A stretch of 64,000 bases of DNA from a virus, in the IMG/VR virus record IMGVR_UViG_3300020583_000010, positions 62,029 through 126,028 of that record. One strand, given 5' to 3'. Shown here piece after piece: positions 5,455 to 57,410 of this stretch. How positions within the stretch are numbered: position 1 is the first letter of the stretch; every line of letters starts with the position of its first letter. Under the pieces are notes generated by a model. The model was not told the DNA's origin, made no database searches, and saw only the letters and a program-made list of their open reading frames with translations. The translations under genes were made by a program, and so were the position numbers.

Positions 5455-6543
5455 TCATACCACTTTTTTAATCCGATGGCAAGAGCCGCAGCGGGCAGAG
5501 GCCACATGGGGCAAGTCGCCGCCCACACTCATTAACTTTGCTTGTTCTAAGGGGTCCATGCTGGTATCATTAGCAACTGCTGTTATAGCCTGCATGAGAG
5601 AGTACATAGTGAGACTATCATCTTCTACCATATTCTCAATTATTCTCTTTTGGTCTCTTGCAGGAAGTGTATAGTCCTCAAAGAGATCAGTCAATATTTG
5701 ATTAATGTCTCCTTCTATAGACTGATGTGCCATGTCTTGAAGCATATGTTGAGAATTTTCTAATGGCTCAAGTATACTATTTACCGTCTCTCTAGCCCAG
5801 TCATATACATCTAGCCCATCGCCTCCAGCATTTCTAGTCCATGTTCCAGATGAGGCCTTGGTGTCTATAGCACCGTTAGTACACCACCAGCGGAATAGAT
5901 AACCATTCACACTAGTCTTACCCTTCCCTGTTAAAGAGTTGAATAAGCTGAGACCAATTAGCCACTCGTCATCCTCAACTCCTGTATCCTCAACAGTGAA
6001 TCGGCGTGAAGGAATTATCAGCCTGAGATGTGTGCCTGCTAGAGCATGGTGAAATTTCGTATCTACTAATATCTCTTCCTCACCATAGCGGTCTTCAATT
6101 CCTTCTAAAACATTATCTAGTATTCTCAAATTGGAGAAAGGTTTAATTGACTGACGAGTCACTGCTGCTGCTTTTCCTTTTGTAACAAGTAGTTTCGCGG
6201 GACGATTGCCCAATCCCTGCTCATTGTACCAATAATTTAAGTCAGGCTCTATAAGCCTAGCAGGAGCCCGCTTCACATAGGCAGCAGGTAGCCCACATAG
6301 GGAGGTTGCTTGTAAAATGGCATCCTTTGACATAGGAAGTTCCACGCCGCCCATTGAAACTTGGACCTGTACCTCTGCTGTTCCTTCTATAGTGTCTAAT
6401 CCATGGTTCCAGCCATCCTCAAGAATAAAATGTACATTTCCTTCATCTAAATTATACTCTCTGAGAGGCTCTGATTCGGCTAATGTATCTTTTACCTGAC
6501 TTAGCGGTATTAACTTATCACGCATTGTATCCAAGGTTATCAT
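5455..6543 (-). CDS. DUF932-family protein
   Basis: LSLFNSLTGKG..YLFRWWCTNGAI resembles the DUF932 NS..G/R..CxNG signature. Confidence 0.6.
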   Translation of the reverse strand: MITLDTMRDKLIPLSQVKDTLAESEPLREYNLDEGNVHFILEDGWNHGLDTIEGTAEVQVQVSMGGVELPMSKDAILQATSLCGLPAAYVKRAPARLIEPDLNYWYNEQGLGNRPAKLLVTKGKAAAVTRQSIKPFSNLRILDNVLEGIEDRYGEEEILVDTKFHHALAGTHLRLIIPSRRFTVEDTGVEDDEWLIGLSLFNSLTGKGKTSVNGYLFRWWCTNGAIDTKASSGTWTRNAGGDGLDVYDWARETVNSILEPLENSQHMLQDMAHQSIEGDINQILTDLFEDYTLPARDQKRIIENMVEDDSLTMYSLMQAITAVANDTSMDPLEQAKLMSVGGDLPHVASARCGSCHRIKKVV

Positions 6544-7712
6544 CTGAAGTCTACCTTTCCAAGGTTGAATGGATCATCATCATCTTCATCAGTTTCTACT
6601 ACACTTGGGGCATTCTCTGATGATATTTTTATCAAGTCTACAGCATAGTCAATTACAAGTTGGCGCCACTCATTATGGCCATCTGCATACTGTAGCAATT
6701 TATCTTCCCCCTGAAAAGCTCCTGGCTTACCTGCCGACTCTGGCAGTCCTGGGAGAAGAAGTTCTGGAGTTTTACTGAAGTAATACCAAGCACCTGTCTT
6801 AGTTACTTTATTATGACTAAGCAGCACCTGCAATGCTGACCAAAAGTTATCAAACCCTTTGCCATATCTTACTTTAACTACGCAACTCTTTTTAGGTGTG
6901 CCTACTTTATTCTTAACCATAGTTACTTTAGTCTCTGTAGCTACACTAACCTCTTCCATTTCATTAGTTAGAGCATTGTATCTCTTACCTTTACTAGTTG
7001 AAATGGGAGCAAACTCAATACGAACGCTAGAGTAGAACTTGGGAGCAAAGCCTCCATTAGTTGTCTTAGTAGTCACTCTCACATAACCTGTTGGTATGCT
7101 TTCCTTCATATGATTAATTAAGATTAGAGTACAGTCATTTACAAACAGGGAATCTACTATTTGGCCTAGGAACTGTCCCATTACCCTAGCTTGGGCTGCT
7201 ACTTGTACCTGGCCAGTGTCAATCTCTAGAGTAGACTCCGGCTGAGCCTCTGCGACGGAGTCCCATATTACCAGTCTAATATGCCCAGTGCCTACTAGTT
7301 CTCTGGCTAAGTTCGCGCCTTTTTCTAAACTTCTAGGCTGTGTTACTATAACACTGTCATGAAGCAGGTCTAGGCCTAAAGAAGCACAGTAGTCCACATC
7401 TAGGGTGTGCTCATAGTCTATATATAGAATTCTATCTGTTGAGTCTTCTAAAATAATTTTCTGTTGTAAGGCAGCAGCAGTCTGAAGGGCCAGTGTCGTT
7501 TTACCACTAGAGGTTGGCCCATAGGCTTCTATTATACGACCCACTGGTAGGCCATCTACACCTACACTATGGTCAATTGACATGTTGCCTGTAGTAAGAC
7601 CTTTTACCTCATCTACCACGTCATCAAAGGTTCCCGCCTTTAGGCCTGCCTTTGAATACTTCTTAAGGATATCTGATATCTCAGAACGGCCTTCATTCTT
7701 TTTAACTGCCAC
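6540..7712 (-). CDS. recA: RecA-like recombinase
   Basis: GLPVGRIIEAYGPTSSGKTT, WDSVA, INH, GGFAPKFYSSVRI, VKNKVG. Confidence 0.95.
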   Translation of the reverse strand: MAVKKNEGRSEISDILKKYSKAGLKAGTFDDVVDEVKGLTTGNMSIDHSVGVDGLPVGRIIEAYGPTSSGKTTLALQTAAALQQKIILEDSTDRILYIDYEHTLDVDYCASLGLDLLHDSVIVTQPRSLEKGANLARELVGTGHIRLVIWDSVAEAQPESTLEIDTGQVQVAAQARVMGQFLGQIVDSLFVNDCTLILINHMKESIPTGYVRVTTKTTNGGFAPKFYSSVRIEFAPISTSKGKRYNALTNEMEEVSVATETKVTMVKNKVGTPKKSCVVKVRYGKGFDNFWSALQVLLSHNKVTKTGAWYYFSKTPELLLPGLPESAGKPGAFQGEDKLLQYADGHNEWRQLVIDYAVDLIKISSENAPSVVETDEDDDDPFNLGKVDFR

Positions 7713-22039: not shown

Positions 22040-22600
22040 TCAACTTACCATACTTTCCAAGTGTCTCAGGTTCTCGCGTAATTTGACTCTCACTTTATTA
22101 CTCATCAAATTATGAGGATCGTACCCAAATGCTGTCTTTAAATCTGAAATAGAACATCCTTGTAAATACTTCATCGACAAGTATTCGCGCTGTCTGTCTG
22201 TTAATGTTGAAATAGCCCGTTCAATATCTTTGCGGTAAATTGAGTATTCTATGTCTGACAATGCTATAGAACCAGGTATAGAAACATGTTCCATATTTTC
22301 TGGAGAAACACTAACAACTGAGTACTTTTTGTTGTACCTAGACATCTTCTTGCTACCGGTGGTCCATGGCGAGTCTTTAGTTACTATGTCTGCCATTTTC
22401 CATGCTGCTCTGTTTCTAACTATAGTATCTACAGAGATTTCATTATCTGTATTAAACTTCTTTAGTTCTTTCCAGACAGCTATAAGAGCTTCTTGAACTA
22501 GGTCATCTTCTGGGTATCCTGGATATCTTCTAGCCAGCGACTGCAAAAGTCCTGTACTTCGGCTAAGTATTTGATTTATATCAAAATCAGAAAGCTGCAC
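22040..22600 (-). CDS. sigma70/ECF-like RNA polymerase sigma factor
   Basis: Region 2 EDDLVQEALIAVW; region 4 LTDRQREYLSMKYLQG. Confidence 0.8.
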   Translation of the reverse strand: MQLSDFDINQILSRSTGLLQSLARRYPGYPEDDLVQEALIAVWKELKKFNTDNEISVDTIVRNRAAWKMADIVTKDSPWTTGSKKMSRYNKKYSVVSVSPENMEHVSIPGSIALSDIEYSIYRKDIERAISTLTDRQREYLSMKYLQGCSISDLKTAFGYDPHNLMSNKVRVKLRENLRHLESMVS

Positions 22601-35575: not shown

Positions 35576-36700
35576 CTACGCGTTCGCGAGCACGGCGCCC
35601 AGCGTGGTGAGCGCGTTGCGGTCGTTCTCACCCATCTTGCCCGAAATCACGTTCTGCATTACGCGATCCTGGCGCGCCGTCTTGCGGATCGTGGCAACGT
35701 GCGTGTTGTACGTGTTGACCGCCTGAAGCACTCCGAGAGCGGTGTTCTTCCACGGCGACACGCGGTCGTCATGGAGCCACAGCTCGGACAGGCTCTCACG
35801 GTGCTTCTCAGCGACCGTCTTGCCCCGTCCCTCTTCAGTCGGAACCGGGGCGTGAGCGTCGAGGAACTGGGCCCACTGGGCATCGGTCACGGTCTGCTCA
35901 GTCAGAGCCTTGACTTCCGCAGCGAAGTCATCCGCCGCAGCATAGATGATGGCCAGCGCGTCACGCGCCTCATCCAACTTCAAGCCGCTGTTCTTCGTGT
36001 GCCTCAGCTTGAAGGACTGGTCGCGCTCGGACTGCGCCATTTCCAGGGTATTATCGCAAACCACTGCTTGGATCTTACGGCCGTACTGCGTTGCGACAGT
36101 GCCGTCGAAAGAGGTGGTCGCGAGCAAGAATGGCCGGAAGTCGAATCCCTCGACGGTCTTGACCGTGTCTTCCATCTCAACCTGAACCCATGCCACAGCG
36201 CCGCCCTTCAGGAGGCCAGCGCTGCCGATCGCGAGTTCACCGGCTCCGGTGTCGAGGATGGAACCGACGTTGTTGATCAGCCACTCCTGATAGCCGTGAC
36301 CCTGATAGCCGTCGCTGAAGATGCCCATGACGTGACCGGTGTCGCTGCGCTTCCACGCGGTCTTGTTGGGCACGGGCACGAAGTCCGCATCGACGTACAC
36401 GGGCGAGGGAACCGCGTCCCAAGCGAACAGACGCCCTCGCACGGTCTCTACGGGAAGATGATACCACGCTTCCCCCCGCTTGTTGGGCACGGGCACGAGG
36501 TCCTCACCGTTGTACGCATCGACGTACACGCGCGAGGGAACCGCGTCCCAATCGAACAGACGCTCTCGCACGGTCTCTACGGGGATGGCGCCCGGAAAGT
36601 GGTTGTCGGTGCCCTCGCGGTGGTGCCACGCATTACCGCGCTTGTCGGTGTAGCCCACAAGCGTGTTCTCATTGAGCCAAGTGAGGCTTTCCTTGGACAT
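35576..36700 (-). CDS. DUF932-family protein with internal duplication
   Basis: AWH, SAGLLKGG, LLATTSFDGT, VVCDNTL; duplicated PVETVR..PVPNK block. Confidence 0.85.
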   Translation of the reverse strand: MSKESLTWLNENTLVGYTDKRGNAWHHREGTDNHFPGAIPVETVRERLFDWDAVPSRVYVDAYNGEDLVPVPNKRGEAWYHLPVETVRGRLFAWDAVPSPVYVDADFVPVPNKTAWKRSDTGHVMGIFSDGYQGHGYQEWLINNVGSILDTGAGELAIGSAGLLKGGAVAWVQVEMEDTVKTVEGFDFRPFLLATTSFDGTVATQYGRKIQAVVCDNTLEMAQSERDQSFKLRHTKNSGLKLDEARDALAIIYAAADDFAAEVKALTEQTVTDAQWAQFLDAHAPVPTEEGRGKTVAEKHRESLSELWLHDDRVSPWKNTALGVLQAVNTYNTHVATIRKTARQDRVMQNVISGKMGENDRNALTTLGAVLANA

Positions 36701-37092
36701 GCTGTCTCCCTAGGTCTGAGGCCCACAGCTGGGCACGAGCACCATTAGATCATATGGACTACAGATGCGTCAAGAAACTACTTGACCTGTATCAGTTCAT
36801 TGATAATGTGCTGGCACTCACTATCTGTAGCCAAAACAGTGAGTCTTACTCACATGATGCTTCCAAGCATCTTTCTTTCAAAGTAGTGAAATATTGTGAC
36901 TACTGCATAGAACTGCAAACCTATGAATAAGTATTCAATGAGATTATGTGACTACTTTGCGTGATCTGATGGCTATTCATGACTAAATACGTGACCAGGG
37001 CCGTTCTAAGAGCCTCCCAGGACTAGGGATAGGCAACCACCCTAGGGTTGTACTCAAAGGCCGTTAGGATGGATATGCCCAGGTCAGAGGGC

Positions 37093-37779
37093 CTAGTTAA
37101 GATCCCTCACGATACTTTCCGCGATGAACTGAGAGTATGCAGGCGGGATGGCTTCCGCGATCGCTTTTCGATCATCAGTCCAGTCGATCCCCATTGCCTG
37201 CTGCCACTCGCTGACAGAACCCTTACCTCCACCGCGTCCGTAGACCGCCAAGTAAGGACCCTCATAGTAGACACCGTGTCGCCATCCTCTGGTTCTACCT
37301 CTATGAGGCTTGTGCACGATCTGCGGAATAGACAGTCTGCTGAGCCAAAAGTTCCGATGCCGAGTAACTCCCAAACCGAACGTCTCGCCGCACAGCTTCA
37401 AGTCAGGTGGCCTTGGCATCCGTTTGGTTGCCTTACCCGGTGGCTGCTCCAAGATCCACGGCAGGCCTATATGATCGAGTGCTGCGACCGTGGGCAATAG
37501 TAAATCAGGGTGCTGTGCCGGCCTGTCGGCGTTGGTACCAGCCGTGAGCGGAGAATCGTGCTGGCATGGCGGCGAAGCGTGGATCACCTGGAATGTCTTC
37601 CGAATCCAGTCTGCCCGCTCGTAGAGGAAGCTGACCACGTCAGCTTGTATAAACTGATCCCCGATATACCTGGGCTGCTCAACGATGTCAACACCCGTGA
37701 CCTCGAAACCGCCAAGCTGATAGCCTCTGGTCGCTCCCCCTTGACAACAGTACAAATCCAGTAAGGCCAGTCTGCTCAC
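37093..37779 (-). CDS. C5-cytosine DNA methyltransferase-like protein
   Basis: LDLYCCQGG, GVDI, IHASPPCQ, EAIPPAYS; usual ENV motif appears as EQP. Confidence 0.85.
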   Translation of the reverse strand: MSRLALLDLYCCQGGATRGYQLGGFEVTGVDIVEQPRYIGDQFIQADVVSFLYERADWIRKTFQVIHASPPCQHDSPLTAGTNADRPAQHPDLLLPTVAALDHIGLPWILEQPPGKATKRMPRPPDLKLCGETFGLGVTRHRNFWLSRLSIPQIVHKPHRGRTRGWRHGVYYEGPYLAVYGRGGGKGSVSEWQQAMGIDWTDDRKAIAEAIPPAYSQFIAESIVRDLN

Positions 37780-37991
37780 TCGTCTTTCAATGCCTCTCTA
37801 AGCCGCAGTACCGCAAGCTCAGCCATACCCATAGCCTCTACAGTGGACAACCCGTCAGTAGCTCTAGCCTGATAGGTGACACCGTCCTCAACAAGGCACT
37901 TCACCACTACCAAGGCTGCTAGAGGAAACTCATTAAGCTCTCCCTCGATAGGAAGACCACAGACATATCTCAGCTCTTCAGAATTAGGCAT
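37776..37991 (-). CDS. hypothetical protein
   Basis: ORF coupled to methyltransferase (ATGA-type overlap). Confidence 0.6.
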   Translation of the reverse strand: MPNSEELRYVCGLPIEGELNEFPLAALVVVKCLVEDGVTYQARATDGLSTVEAMGMAELAVLRLREALKDE

Positions 37992-38447
37992 AGCATTCCC
38001 ATGAAAGATTGATGTTGACTTTGATTTTATTGTTGATTAGATGTTTTCGGGTACACTCGCCCTATAGTCCCAAAGCCCAGGTCAGCGGTATATGTGCTGG
38101 TCAAAGCTTCAAACTATAGGAACGAGATAGTACCCGCCATACTTGATTTAGAGTGGCTTCCGGGTCCCACTGAGATGCCCAACCTCAGACATTCGATCAG
38201 CTTAAGAGCGCTGTCCGGGAGGCTCCCCTCCCGCGAGGAAATGAAAAAAGGATCAAAGCCTCGACTCTGTACGCGACCGTCAGGACCTAACCGAAGTTAG
38301 CTAATCGCACAAGAGCCGGGCCCTGATCCGTCTACGTACTTAGATATCATCGACAGATAGATTTCTTTAGCAGAATTTCGAACGAGATCAATGTCACACG
38401 TGGCGGCTCTTGACTTATCTGCTGATCTGTGCTTGCCAGATCAGGAC

Positions 38448-38477
38448 TTGACAGCGCTGCTCAGGTTGCCCTAGCTT
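38448..38477 (+). promoter_or_regulatory. promoter at head of the long plus-strand gene run
   Basis: TTGACA-N18-TAGCTT. Confidence 0.7.
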
Positions 38478-38482
38478 GGAGT

Positions 38483-38665
38483 CACAGCAGCACGAGTCAC
38501 AAAACTGATGAGGGTTGGTGGGTCACGCGGTGGCTACGGTCCCCATTAGGTCTGACACTGCCGCTCGCGCTGCTCAAATGGTGGCCAAGTATCAGGTAAA
38601 ACTCCTGAGGCAAGATCCGTCTGTGAGCGGATGGCAGATGCCGTTGGCTAGGGAGTGCCACCCAT
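38483..38665 (+). ncRNA. structured two-domain 5' leader RNA
   Basis: gcagcacgag/ctcgcgctgc; tcagg/cctga; atccg/cggat; ggtggc/gccacc helices. Confidence 0.55.
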
Positions 38666-38689
38666 AATCAATCTATCTGAGGAGACACG

Positions 38690-38788
38690 ATGTTCGGAAG
38701 CAGGATCGTCACCCGTCAGGTTCGCCGGACCGTCCGTAGGCAGCGCCGCAAGGTTACCCGCGCGGCTGTCCGGCAGCTCAAGAAGTAG
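38690..38788 (+). CDS. 32-aa arginine-rich peptide (not in ORF track)
   Basis: GAGGAG RBS; MFGSRIVTRQVRRTVRRQRRKVTRAAVRQLKK. Confidence 0.7.
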   Translation: MFGSRIVTRQVRRTVRRQRRKVTRAAVRQLKK

Positions 38789-38794
38789 GTACTC

Positions 38795-41700
38795 ATGCTT
38801 AAAATGAACCGCTCTAAGCGCTACAGTCCCGGCTACGAAGCACTCATGGAAGAGGTAAGGCTAACTTGGGACCCGCACGATCCGTTCGCCTCAGGCTGCG
38901 AATGGCGGTTTGCACTCACGGAAGTCCTCCACTTCGATCACGGAGAGCACGTCCCAGATTACAGCCCCGGCGCTGTCACTGAGCCGGAGGCGCACAGCTA
39001 CGCGGTAGAAGCTGTACGTGACCTTCTCAAGTATCATGAAACGACCACGGAGGATCTTCGCGCAGTGCTCGGCGTGCTCAACCGTCACCGTGAATGGCTT
39101 CGGATACTCGGAAGGGACTACTAGGATGACATCATTCGTCCGTTGCCTGAAGTGCCGCAAGCGTGTTATTCTCGGTAGAGAGAACTTCGTAGGCACATCG
39201 AACGGTTACTATCACTCGGCTTGTATGCCGTGGCCGCCCAAGACTGAGGAGAGCTGATTATGGAGCTTAAGGAAAACCACCGACGCGCTCTGCGCTACGT
39301 CGCTAAGAACCACGTTCATGTATCCAATAATGGCACCAGCGACTCGCGAGCCGTCTCCGGTCCCGCAGTGAAGGAGCTCACCCGCGCAGGTCTCCTAGCC
39401 AAGAATGGAGCCGCTTGGCGGTTCGTCGGTGGAAGGCGCTACCGGCGTCTGGTTGTCACTCAAGCCGGGTTCGACCTGCTCACCTCGAAGTAAGAAAGGA
39501 CTACTTATCAACCTGCTCAAGAAACACGACAAGTGGATGAGCAGAGTGAGCAGAAAGAAGAACTGTTGCAACTACTGATAGATGTACTTTGTGTTGTCAT
39601 CCCTGTAGGCATCATAGGGCCTTTCATGTGGTTTAATGGAAGCACTAGGAAAGCCAACATTAAGAAAAGGAATTCATCATGATGCTTCGAGTCACCTATG
39701 AGAGGCTCCATAATGACTGACATCGTAGAAGTCGGAACCCTGGTCCTGTACCACGGACCCAATAAACTCTACCATGGCCTAGCTTTCGTCTCTCGTAAGA
39801 TCAGTGGTTACGATTCTGATTCCTACGTGCTCGTTCCCTTCGTGTTCGATGAGGGTGAAGTGGTAGGGGTTAACAGTGGTAGCATCGACACTGATCGCCA
39901 GAACTTCACGACGGTACAGCTGCCGGAGGTCCCTGTGGAAGAGAAGCCCGGTTACTACTGCTCTTCTAGCCACTACTTCTACCGACACGACCCCAGCGCG
40001 GATGACGAGTGGATTTACTGGAGTAATCTGAGGGCAGAGTGGTCTAGGCCTGATCACATCACCAAGCTCACTCCTGCTGAACGCCAGAAAGAGCTCACCT
40101 ATCTTGGAGGTCTGTAAGCTATGCCTCTCACTTCTGCTCAAGCTCGCAAAGTTCAGGCTTTGAGCTACGGTCAAGGCCGAATCGATCAGTCGCTCAGTGC
40201 TATTCCCTACACAGTTGAGGTTCCGCAATACATAAAGGATCTACCCCGCTATTTCGCTGAGTGGGTAGAGAAGTCTGCTCCTTGGGCAATGATCGACTCC
40301 TTCATGTGGGACGCATTCATAGAGAACTACGAACCGCCCAACACGAGAGGGTGAGGTAATCATGACTGAGATGTACCTACCGTGTGGCTGCTACCACGCT
40401 GGTCATTCTATTCCTTGCCAAACTCGTTCCATCAACAGCGAGTTTGCTGGCAAGTTCCCAGGTGACACGGAGAAGTCTCTCGCTGTCAAGGCTGCTAAGC
40501 TCGCTGTACTCCGGCTTAAGGAAAGGGTTTAGTCATGACCGAATCTGTCACCACTCCCATGCTGGATAAGCTCAGCGCCGAGAAGTACAAGACCGAGATC
40601 ATACATGAGTTTCTTGAGTTCTGTGAGGAACATAGTGTGTATCTTGCAACCTTCCATACAGGCACGAGCAACGGCTTCTACCATCCTGCTACGCAACGAG
40701 CAACGGATCTGTTGATGGCTAAGTTCATCGGAGTCGACATGAACATTGTTGAGCAGGAAGGAAGCGAATGCCTAAGCTGATCATCGAGTCTCAGCCGGAC
40801 TATGGTTTCTCTCGCATCGAACGTGAAGTCGACAGTCTGGATGATGCCTGGAAGACGATTCTAGCTGATCTGGAATTGTCCAGGGTCACTCCTGACTTCG
40901 CTGCCGAGGTGGGTTACGAATTCGGGCGCCACACCCTAGCTTGGAAAGAGTACGGTCGGAGCCTTGGCGAGCAAGACATGCCAGGAGCAAACCACAACGG
41001 CTTCACTTTCACTATAGAGGACGGTCCTGAAATGTTCATTGTCTTCACCTACGAGGAAGACAATGCTTGAGGTAGACGAGGGTAAGCAGAAAGACTTAGC
41101 CCTAGGAGAGATTAGCATGGTACGTTCAAGCCGCAAGATAGATTTGTCTAGACGGCAGGATAAGATGTGTGGCAATAAACGGCCGTACGCCACTCGTGAG
41201 GCTGCTCTCAGTGCCGTGGAAGACCTGGAAAGCCGAACAGGCGACGTGAATAGAATGGTAGTATACAAGTGCCATTATTGCGATCAATTTCATTTCGGCC
41301 ACCTGCCGGGTAGCAAGCGTCTAAAGAAGTAGGGATTAAATGTCTGAGAACACAGCAGTACTGCTCGTTCAAGACTGGACTACAGTCTGCTCACGGTGCC
41401 TCTACCAGGTCTTGCCAGAGGCCAAGACACATGTTAGGATTGCAGGCTACGGACCTCCAGCTAACGGGTGCGGAGCACTCTTCACTGGAATCGCGTCAGC
41501 GGAACCAGGAAAGTTCAACGATGCCAGGCTGCATGAGATGCGCCCCGATCTGAAAGTGGTTAGACTGTAATGGACCCTAATGAAGTTCTCAGACTCATGC
41601 GCAGCTCTGCAAAGCGCATTCACGCCATGCTGCTGCTAGATGACAATGAGGCAGTTACTCTAGCCGACGCTGTTGAGGCTATGGATGACTGGCTTCGCAA

Positions 41701-51641: not shown

Positions 51642-51678
51642 GGTCCGAGTTGACAAGCTCGGACCTTATGTGTATCCT
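51642..51678 (+). promoter_or_regulatory. promoter with -35 inside an inverted repeat
   Basis: ggtccgag-TTGACAag-ctcggacc; TTGACA-N17-TATCCT. Confidence 0.65.
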
Positions 51679-57380: not shown

Positions 57381-57410
57381 AGAAAGCCCCTCAACCTTGA
57401 GGGGCTTTCT
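57381..57410. terminator. bidirectional terminator between convergent blocks
   Basis: agaaagcccctcaa-cc-ttgaggggctttct. Confidence 0.85.

Follow-up and report, generated by a model that had tools for sequence, protein, structure and literature searches.

A segment of ~82 nt which looks like a real, unclassified leader or intergenic RNA element lies at the head of a long run of co-oriented genes in the virus genome IMGVR_UViG_3300020583_000010 of IMG/VR (126,028 bp, 94% complete), and it is followed by an open reading frame (ORF) of 32 amino acids (aa) which probably encodes a real small basic protein. By the window we mean the whole stretch of 64,000 nucleotides that was analysed, bases 62029-126028 and the right half of the record, and positions are counted from its first letter unless another genome is named. 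An earlier note on the window had described the locus as a structured leader RNA with an Arg-rich micro-peptide and had proposed an antitermination system or a riboswitch. The coordinates of the features are collected in Table 1.

A conserved element in the leader

Relatives of the DNA polymerase with 64-70% identity were taken from a large protein set and 15 of them were aligned, which led to 39 IMG/VR loci. These loci include a single close relative, called G001 (119,392 bp), whose DNA polymerase is 65% identical; the DNA polymerase alone as a query of IMG/VR gave no lead. The whole G001 record is collinear with the window's own genome (G000) across the structural and replication modules, and in the early run just six ORFs have homologues in G001.

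Single-sequence covariance models of the two 'domains' which had been drawn in the leader were run on 27 records. The model of domain 2 matches positions 22274-22360 of G001 on the minus strand, the strand of its gene run, with 19.5 bits and E = 0.0076 per genome (E = 0.0009 against the 14-kb G001 locus with filters off). Apart from the query's own source this is the sole match at E <= 1 among the 27 records. The element and the G001 copy are identical at 58 of 82 positions (71%), and their local alignment score of 34 compares with 14.8 ± 1.1 and a maximum of 19 in 150 dinucleotide shuffles (z ~17). All other pieces of the 700-nt intergenic region reach local scores of 13-17 against G001. The element is not protein-coding, because no reading frame stays open through both copies: each genome closes one frame with a stop codon, and the third is disrupted by a 1-nt indel.

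In G001 the element starts 8 nt past the stop codon of an 86-aa gene, in a gap of 223 nt and ~130 nt before the next start codon. The genes flanking it have no homologues in the window's run, and it lies 4.7 kb downstream of the basic ORF of G001 in the same run. A model built from both sequences (R3) has no match at E <= 1 in a further 33 related records, and on L055, a contig of 1.8 kb, its best row has 7.1 bits and no element. Patterns made from the conserved blocks found G001 alone in IMG/VR. They also occur in two contigs of metagenome-assembled genomes in GTDB, which we regard as chance because they do not fit model R3 (best row 8.1 bits, off the pattern sites).

The consensus fold predicted by RNAalifold is one interrupted rod, which begins with GGC/GCC, continues with CUCCU/GGGAG, where the GGGAG is a Shine-Dalgarno-like word, and ends in inner stems. 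Four of its 20 pairs are compensatory, one is changed on one side and none is broken, compared to 0-1 compensatory pairs and 33-50% of cells paired when the partners are slid by 1-3 columns. In column shuffles the consensus energy has z = -2.65 and -1.97, with the observed energy reached in 1.4-4.4%, and at least four compensatory pairs occur in 5.0% and 2.5% of 1,000 column shuffles (p ~0.01-0.05). These figures suggest the fold. Five pairs form as G-U in one sequence or both; on the other strand these would become A-C, and therefore the fold belongs to the transcribed strand. The unpaired stretches are better conserved than the stems, with 13 of 16 positions identical in the 5' bulge.

Of the covariation in related phages which the earlier note had named as a check, some is found in this part of the leader and domain 1 has no match. 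Its two mutually exclusive folds of domain 2 fared differently as well: the alternative GGC...CUCCU/GGGAG-GCC is backed by G001, and the UCAGG/CCUGA hairpin at 38592-38608, which is the most boxB-like with its short, A-rich loop, loses two of its five pairs there.

The conserved block could instead act as a DNA-level site, such as a protein-binding site or a replication or recombination hairpin, or be a separate small RNA gene. Its sequence conservation is far stronger than the evidence for its structure, as such a site would have it. Furthermore, a search directly before the ORF for an internal promoter of the G001 type gave no TTGACA-type site and just a possible -10-only CATAAT (38663-38668); if this served the ORF, 38484-38663 would be left as a transcript of its own. 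However, compensatory changes and G-U pairs that work on one strand only are signs of a folded transcript, the element is not followed by a terminator-like end, and the G001 copy sits close behind a stop codon with no promoter-like site nearby. We therefore consider a DNA-level site or a small RNA gene unlikely.

A basic micro-ORF ahead of the 109-aa gene

The 32-aa ORF, its Shine-Dalgarno (SD) sequence and its three Lys are as first described; the peptide has ten Arg and not nine. Of the 1,040 ORFs of at least 30 aa in the window's own genome, no other combines an SD with a net charge of +10 or more over its first 32 residues, and among 1,072 in G001 its counterpart alone does. The latter has 67 aa with a net charge of +17 (+14 in the first 42 residues), stands directly before a 111-aa gene and was called as a gene by the source pipeline. 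Both basic ORFs begin with MF. The micro-gene is probably real because the most basic ORF of each genome directly precedes, in frame, the homologous 109- or 111-aa gene. As the sequence similarity of the two basic ORFs is not significant, the case for the micro-gene is built on position, composition and the first two residues. Moreover, the ESM Atlas contains the peptide letter for letter, so it was predicted by some gene caller.

Searches with the peptide gave few leads. The 32-aa peptide matches no Pfam and no PHROG family, and the 67-aa counterpart matches no PHROG. A phmmer search with the peptide against 1.84 billion representatives returned no match at E <= 0.001, tblastn against cultured phages no useful match, a look-alike search with both basic ORFs in the ESM Atlas no lead, and exact and degenerate DNA patterns of the locus in IMG/VR no lead either. 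An antisense gene over the peptide was considered and rejected: that frame is coding-like (+9.8) and open for ~70 codons, with no start giving at least 25 aa.

The 109-aa gene belongs to a family of three, with the 111-aa protein of G001 (42% identity, E = 1e-22) and a 115-aa protein on L055. The L055 homologue follows an unrelated hydrophobic ORF of 65 aa. The two phages agree in having the next gene in the frame of the basic ORF, after one stop codon (TAG in the window, TGA in G001) and two or four further codons; the G001 pair lies at 6462-7013 on the minus strand of L054, our name for the G001 locus. The micro-ORF and the 109-aa gene probably form a conserved two-gene module. A gene that has been split or read-through of the stop codon could account for the shared frame, as could chance, with a probability of 1 in 9. 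The tripeptide MNR occurs in the basic N-terminal extension of the 109-aa protein and also at the C-terminal end of the G001 67-aa ORF.

The AF2 model of the 109-aa protein has four helices (pLDDT 79.8). Its best Foldseek match in the PDB has E = 2.5 and so gives no functional lead. The PDB has nothing similar at E <= 0.001, neither Pfam nor PHROGs has a family for this protein, and in IMG/VR, the JGI metagenomes and a set of 5.8 billion proteins it found just itself.

Table 1. Positions of the features at the head of the gene run and at its end, in window coordinates
Feature	Position	Strand	Remarks
Perfect 8-bp inverted repeat CTGATCTG-N7-CAGATCAG	38422..38444	.	Just upstream of the -35 box, between two TTGAC boxes
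Promoter-like site, host sigma-70 type	38448..38477	+	TTGACA 38448-38453, 18-nt spacer, TAGCTT 38472-38477
Inferred 5' leader, ~205 nt	38484..38689	+	213 nt from promoter pattern to ATG; transcription start inferred
'Domain 1', closing stem with TGATGA and CTGA words	38486..38576	+	Unsupported as a functional structure
Conserved element, ~82 nt	38583..38663	+	Blocks GGCCAAG, ATCAG, ACTCCT, GGCAGAT and CTAGGGAG-GCC
Shine-Dalgarno GAGGAG	38679..38684	+	5 nt before the ATG at 38690
32-aa ORF	38690..38788	+	10 Arg and 3 Lys, net +13; TAG stop at 38786-38788
109-aa gene	38795..39124	+	6 nt after the micro-ORF, same frame; predicted all-helical
Terminator hairpin, GC-rich, 12-14 bp	57382..57409	.	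Between convergent runs; unlisted by the terminator scanner

Promoter and leader

A promoter-like site is present at the head of the run as proposed, with TTGACA and TAGCTT 18 nt apart. The consensus scanner does not list it because its -10 box agrees with TATAAT at only three of six positions. Sites of the form TTGAC-N17-19-TAnnnT are enriched 2.7-fold in the genome, with 39 occurrences compared to 14.5 ± 3.7 in 30 dinucleotide shuffles; they frequently have TG ahead of the -10 box. A TAGCTT -10 box is likewise found in G001, after a TTGACG box.

The leader of ~200 nt was also borne out, as ~205 nt of non-coding DNA with no credible ORF. The two ORFs that overlap it (38429-38599 and 38515-38667) score -0.05 and +0.06 per codon compared to 0.26 ± 0.12 for the real genes of the run, and were rejected. 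This leader is unusually long, and its 5' half has no detectable conservation or excess stability. By blastn-short there is no second copy of it in the genome, and a search for iterons gave just short two-copy matches at chance level. In G001 the basic ORF has its own promoter-like site, TTGACA-16-TAGGAT, and a leader of just ~40 nt; the long leader is therefore outside the conserved module. Nine promoter-like sites stand ahead of start codons in the G001 run, with leaders of ~7-42 nt.

Just upstream of the -35 box, the inverted repeat CTGATCTG-N7-CAGATCAG is unique in the genome and is a possible operator. By itself it is unremarkable, because ~55 distinct 8-bp inverted repeats with 3-12-nt spacers occur in the 126 kb (96 counting nested ones). 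In addition, a 10-nt perfect complement, CAGATAGATT at 38354-38363 and AATCTATCTG at 38670-38679, spans the region with its arms 306 nt apart and the second arm adjoining the SD; by our estimate ~0.4 such pairs are expected by chance in the stretch.

The helices which the earlier note had named for a structured leader are present in the sequence, and the whole-leader fold of -74.9 kcal/mol is no better than chance (z = -0.43, 66 of 200 shuffles at least as stable). Domain 1 is not supported as a functional domain: its fold has z = -1.36 (21 of 200 shuffles), its model R1 matches just its own source among the 27 records, with one other row at E = 0.99, and its local alignment score of 13 against G001 is at the null level.

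The proposed box C/D kink-turn in domain 1 has no support either. In a kink-turn a flanking canonical stem joins the C and D boxes, which form tandem sheared G-A pairs. The leader resembles this in having TGATGA and CTGA ~45 nt apart within a closed domain; it differs in that the residues flanking the boxes are not complementary, the TGATGA is part of a helix in the minimum-energy fold, which pairs CUGAUGAGGG with CCCCAUUAG, and the domain is missing from G001. A hammerhead or other ribozyme around CTGATGA was also considered and rejected, as no Rfam match was found.

Rfam gave eight matches in the window at the gathering threshold, all of them transfer RNAs (tRNAs). At E <= 10 it gave just a chance long non-coding RNA row for 38300-38900 (E = 3.5) and no match for the G001 copy of the element. 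The suggested riboswitch thus matches no Rfam riboswitch or other family. A translational switch that senses a ligand or factor, in which CUCCU (38602-38606) pairs with either GGGAG (38651-38655) or the SD of the micro-ORF, seems quite improbable to us. Both pairings can form, and conservation that is stronger in the unpaired stretches than in the stems is aptamer-like. Against a switch, neither copy belongs to an Rfam family at E <= 10, other hairpins lie between the G001 element and the next start codon, and SD-like and anti-SD-like words are common.

There is an equally small chance that nothing beyond the promoter and the genes is functional, so that the leader would be a leftover of rearrangement and the G001 match a relic of common descent. 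The region from the DUF3631 gene to the run is indeed remodelled relative to G001, and domain 1 is unsupported. The 82-nt block, however, is 71% identical while the flanking proteins are 35-42% identical or unrelated, and a relic is disfavoured because neutral DNA should be unrecognisable at that divergence.

RNA libraries

Two RNA libraries, X3 (a soil metatranscriptome run) and X4, contain 9% and 7% of the sampled words, with contig depths of 2-4. Contigs of X3 cover 38514-38645, 38980-39130 and 40648-40833, and those of X4 cover 38146-38318 and 40129-40310; in both, carry-over of DNA is possible, and the parts left uncovered are uninformative. The X3 contig over the leader is weak evidence that the leader is transcribed. 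At its end at 38514 stand 19 letters which we take to be Illumina adapter. The contig would mean a plus-sense RNA fragment of 132 nt, provided that the library, whose type is not on record, is dUTP-stranded. The X4 contig at 38146-38318 includes a CGGGAGG/CCTCCCG hairpin.

A tentative account of the locus

We favour, with somewhat less than even confidence, an account in which the locus consists of an early promoter of the host RNA polymerase, a leader with a cis-acting RNA element and the gene of a basic micro-protein. Transcription of the early rightward messenger would start from the promoter at 38448-38477. The element would act in cis on this early mRNA as a site recognised by a protein, possibly an RNase III-like nuclease that processes the transcript or else an RNA-binding regulator, and would in this way set how stable the messages of the early genes further down are, or how they are processed or translated. 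The transcript would then encode the 32-aa basic protein and after it the 109-aa helical protein. Specific recognition can be argued since unpaired bases of the element are conserved.

Several observations weigh against this account. What the element does is a guess from its position and shape. Its covariation is weak and comes from two sequences, and the fold is derived from the same alignment on which it is scored. The G001 copy is not thermodynamically unusual (z = +0.41), and the z of -2.28 for the domain 2 fold (4 of 200 shuffles) was obtained with boundaries picked after the helices were known. Furthermore, a competing inner hairpin (AUCCG/CGGAU here, CCAG/CUGG in G001) fits both sequences only with a register shift. 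With regard to the micro-gene, its codon score of -2.2 is below 99.6% of the in-frame 32-codon windows of the run and above 89% of the out-of-frame ones. Homology of the two basic ORFs is not demonstrable (BLASTP E = 0.48, shuffle p ~0.05-0.07), and the G001 67-aa protein has no match in the window genome. Finally, the X4 contig upstream of the promoter (depth 2.6) covers non-coding DNA.

The gene run and antitermination

The run holds 61 hand-tiled ORFs on the plus strand up to 57346, which agrees with the ~60 co-oriented genes counted before, and the terminator hairpin described at its end is found there. This hairpin is probably a bidirectional terminator which ends the run. Between 38400 and 58000 there are eight terminator-like sites compared to 11.5 ± 3.2 in shuffles, in a scan for Rho-independent sites with a U-tract; three of the eight are on the plus strand and two of these are weak. 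No gene of the NusG or Q family was found. Promoter-like sites are few in the run between 38448 and 51650. At 51642-51665, as at ~7060-7095 on the minus strand of L054, a GC-rich inverted repeat carries a TTGACA box in its loop, with a -10-like hexamer just after it. Seen in both phages, these looped repeats look like a compact terminator-plus-promoter or a regulated promoter.

The element and the basic ORF co-occur in both of the two genomes which have either of them, with one copy of the element in each; in the four next relatives (searched with protein) and the 33 other records (searched with RNA) neither was found. The co-occurrence which the earlier note had named as a check was thus seen for these two features. 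Leader and peptide are not a fixed module, because in G001 a promoter of its own precedes the basic ORF and the element lies 4.7 kb downstream of it.

Antitermination by the leader or the peptide is speculation, and we regard an N/nut-like reading as unsupported. A pair of this kind in a lineage of soil actinophages, in which the peptide binds the element and brings about antitermination or peptide-controlled translation or stability, is very improbable. The chance is slighter still for its strict form, in which binding of the basic peptide to the element on the growing RNA would let the polymerase pass terminators across the run. The order of promoter, RNA element and Arg-rich gene would suit it, as would the position of the element in G001, where it follows the basic ORF along the direction of transcription, the co-occurrence in both genomes and the scarcity of promoter-like sites in the first part of the run. 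Against it stand the single element copy per genome and the terminator-like sites, which are no more frequent than expected. In the G001 run 14 promoter-like sites lie on its strand below 30 kb, so that the distal genes need no read-through. Moreover, G001 has not retained the boxB-like hairpin, and the peptide matches neither Pfam nor PHROGs. With 32 aa it is too small to include regions for contact with the polymerase and Nus factors, and it shows no conservation of the 35 additional residues in its G001 counterpart.

An RNA-only antiterminator like HK022 put, or another cis element that modifies the polymerase without the peptide, is hardly credible: a conserved structured element on the transcribed strand is promoter-proximal in this phage, but in G001 the nearest upstream promoter-like site on the same strand is ~4 kb off, the consensus fold is one interrupted rod and not two adjacent stem-loops, terminators are not enriched and each genome has a single copy. 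Among the titles returned by full-text literature searches we saw no actinophage antitermination RNA.

Genome context and host

The window encodes a family A DNA polymerase, a DnaB-type helicase, RecA, an RNA ligase and eight tRNAs. An actinobacterial host is plausible from sequence comparison because the best matches among cultured phages are actinophages. The nearest cultured phage by polymerase is Microbacterium phage Magritte (37% identity), in which neither leader nor peptide was found. The best tblastn matches of the DUF932 gene are phages of Rhodococcus, Gordonia, Microbacterium and Mycobacterium, with identities of at most 44%. A blastn search of 38300-39300 against cultured phages gave no useful match.

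The DUF932 gene lies with a DUF3631 gene in an island of 60% GC at 32-38 kb. Between the DUF3631 gene and the run, at 35576-37991, there are the DUF932 gene, a 228-aa ORF and a 71-aa ORF, none of which has a counterpart in G001; the DUF3631 gene has one. The 228-aa ORF has no Pfam match and is methylase-like by eye. This segment looks like an insertion in the island. The window is present in two soil DNA runs. At the locus the sequences of the DNA runs X1 and X2 do not differ from the window and therefore give no natural variation.

Significance and comparison with known systems

To our knowledge, there is hardly any work on how large actinophages control their early genes, and the early regions of these phages consist of orphan genes. 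The locus offers two small parts which can be synthesised, an 82-nt RNA with conserved unpaired bases and a peptide of 32 residues, of which the latter would come from a genuine gene about as small as gene callers still recognise. If peptide and RNA interact, they would form a compact RNA-peptide regulatory module from a new lineage, and if they were an N/nut-like pair, a minimal and independently evolved analogue of the lambdoid one in phages of Gram-positive, high-GC hosts. If they do not interact, the element is still a candidate for a new phage RNA motif, be it a processing or a regulatory site. As it stands, with two sequences, the finding is modest.

Lambda has the order PL-nutL-N. The likeness to N/nutL is in the promoter, the leader RNA element and a gene for a protein with an Arg-rich N-terminus, and in G001 the element also lies further down in the same transcription direction. 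The differences are the 32-aa peptide with no family match, the unconserved boxB-like hairpin, the single element per genome and the lack of terminator enrichment. Like HK022 put, the element is a conserved cis RNA of the transcribed strand, and in this phage an early promoter lies upstream of it. Unlike put, it is predicted to form one rod, occurs in a single copy and is not promoter-proximal in G001.

The early region of T7 has RNase III processing sites, one of which precedes gene 0.3 in its leader. The T7 sites are numerous and poorly conserved in sequence, whereas here there is one element per genome, with strongly conserved unpaired bases. It resembles the T7 sites in its predicted irregular hairpin of ~20 pairs with internal loops and in its place in the leader or an intergenic gap of a polycistronic early transcript.

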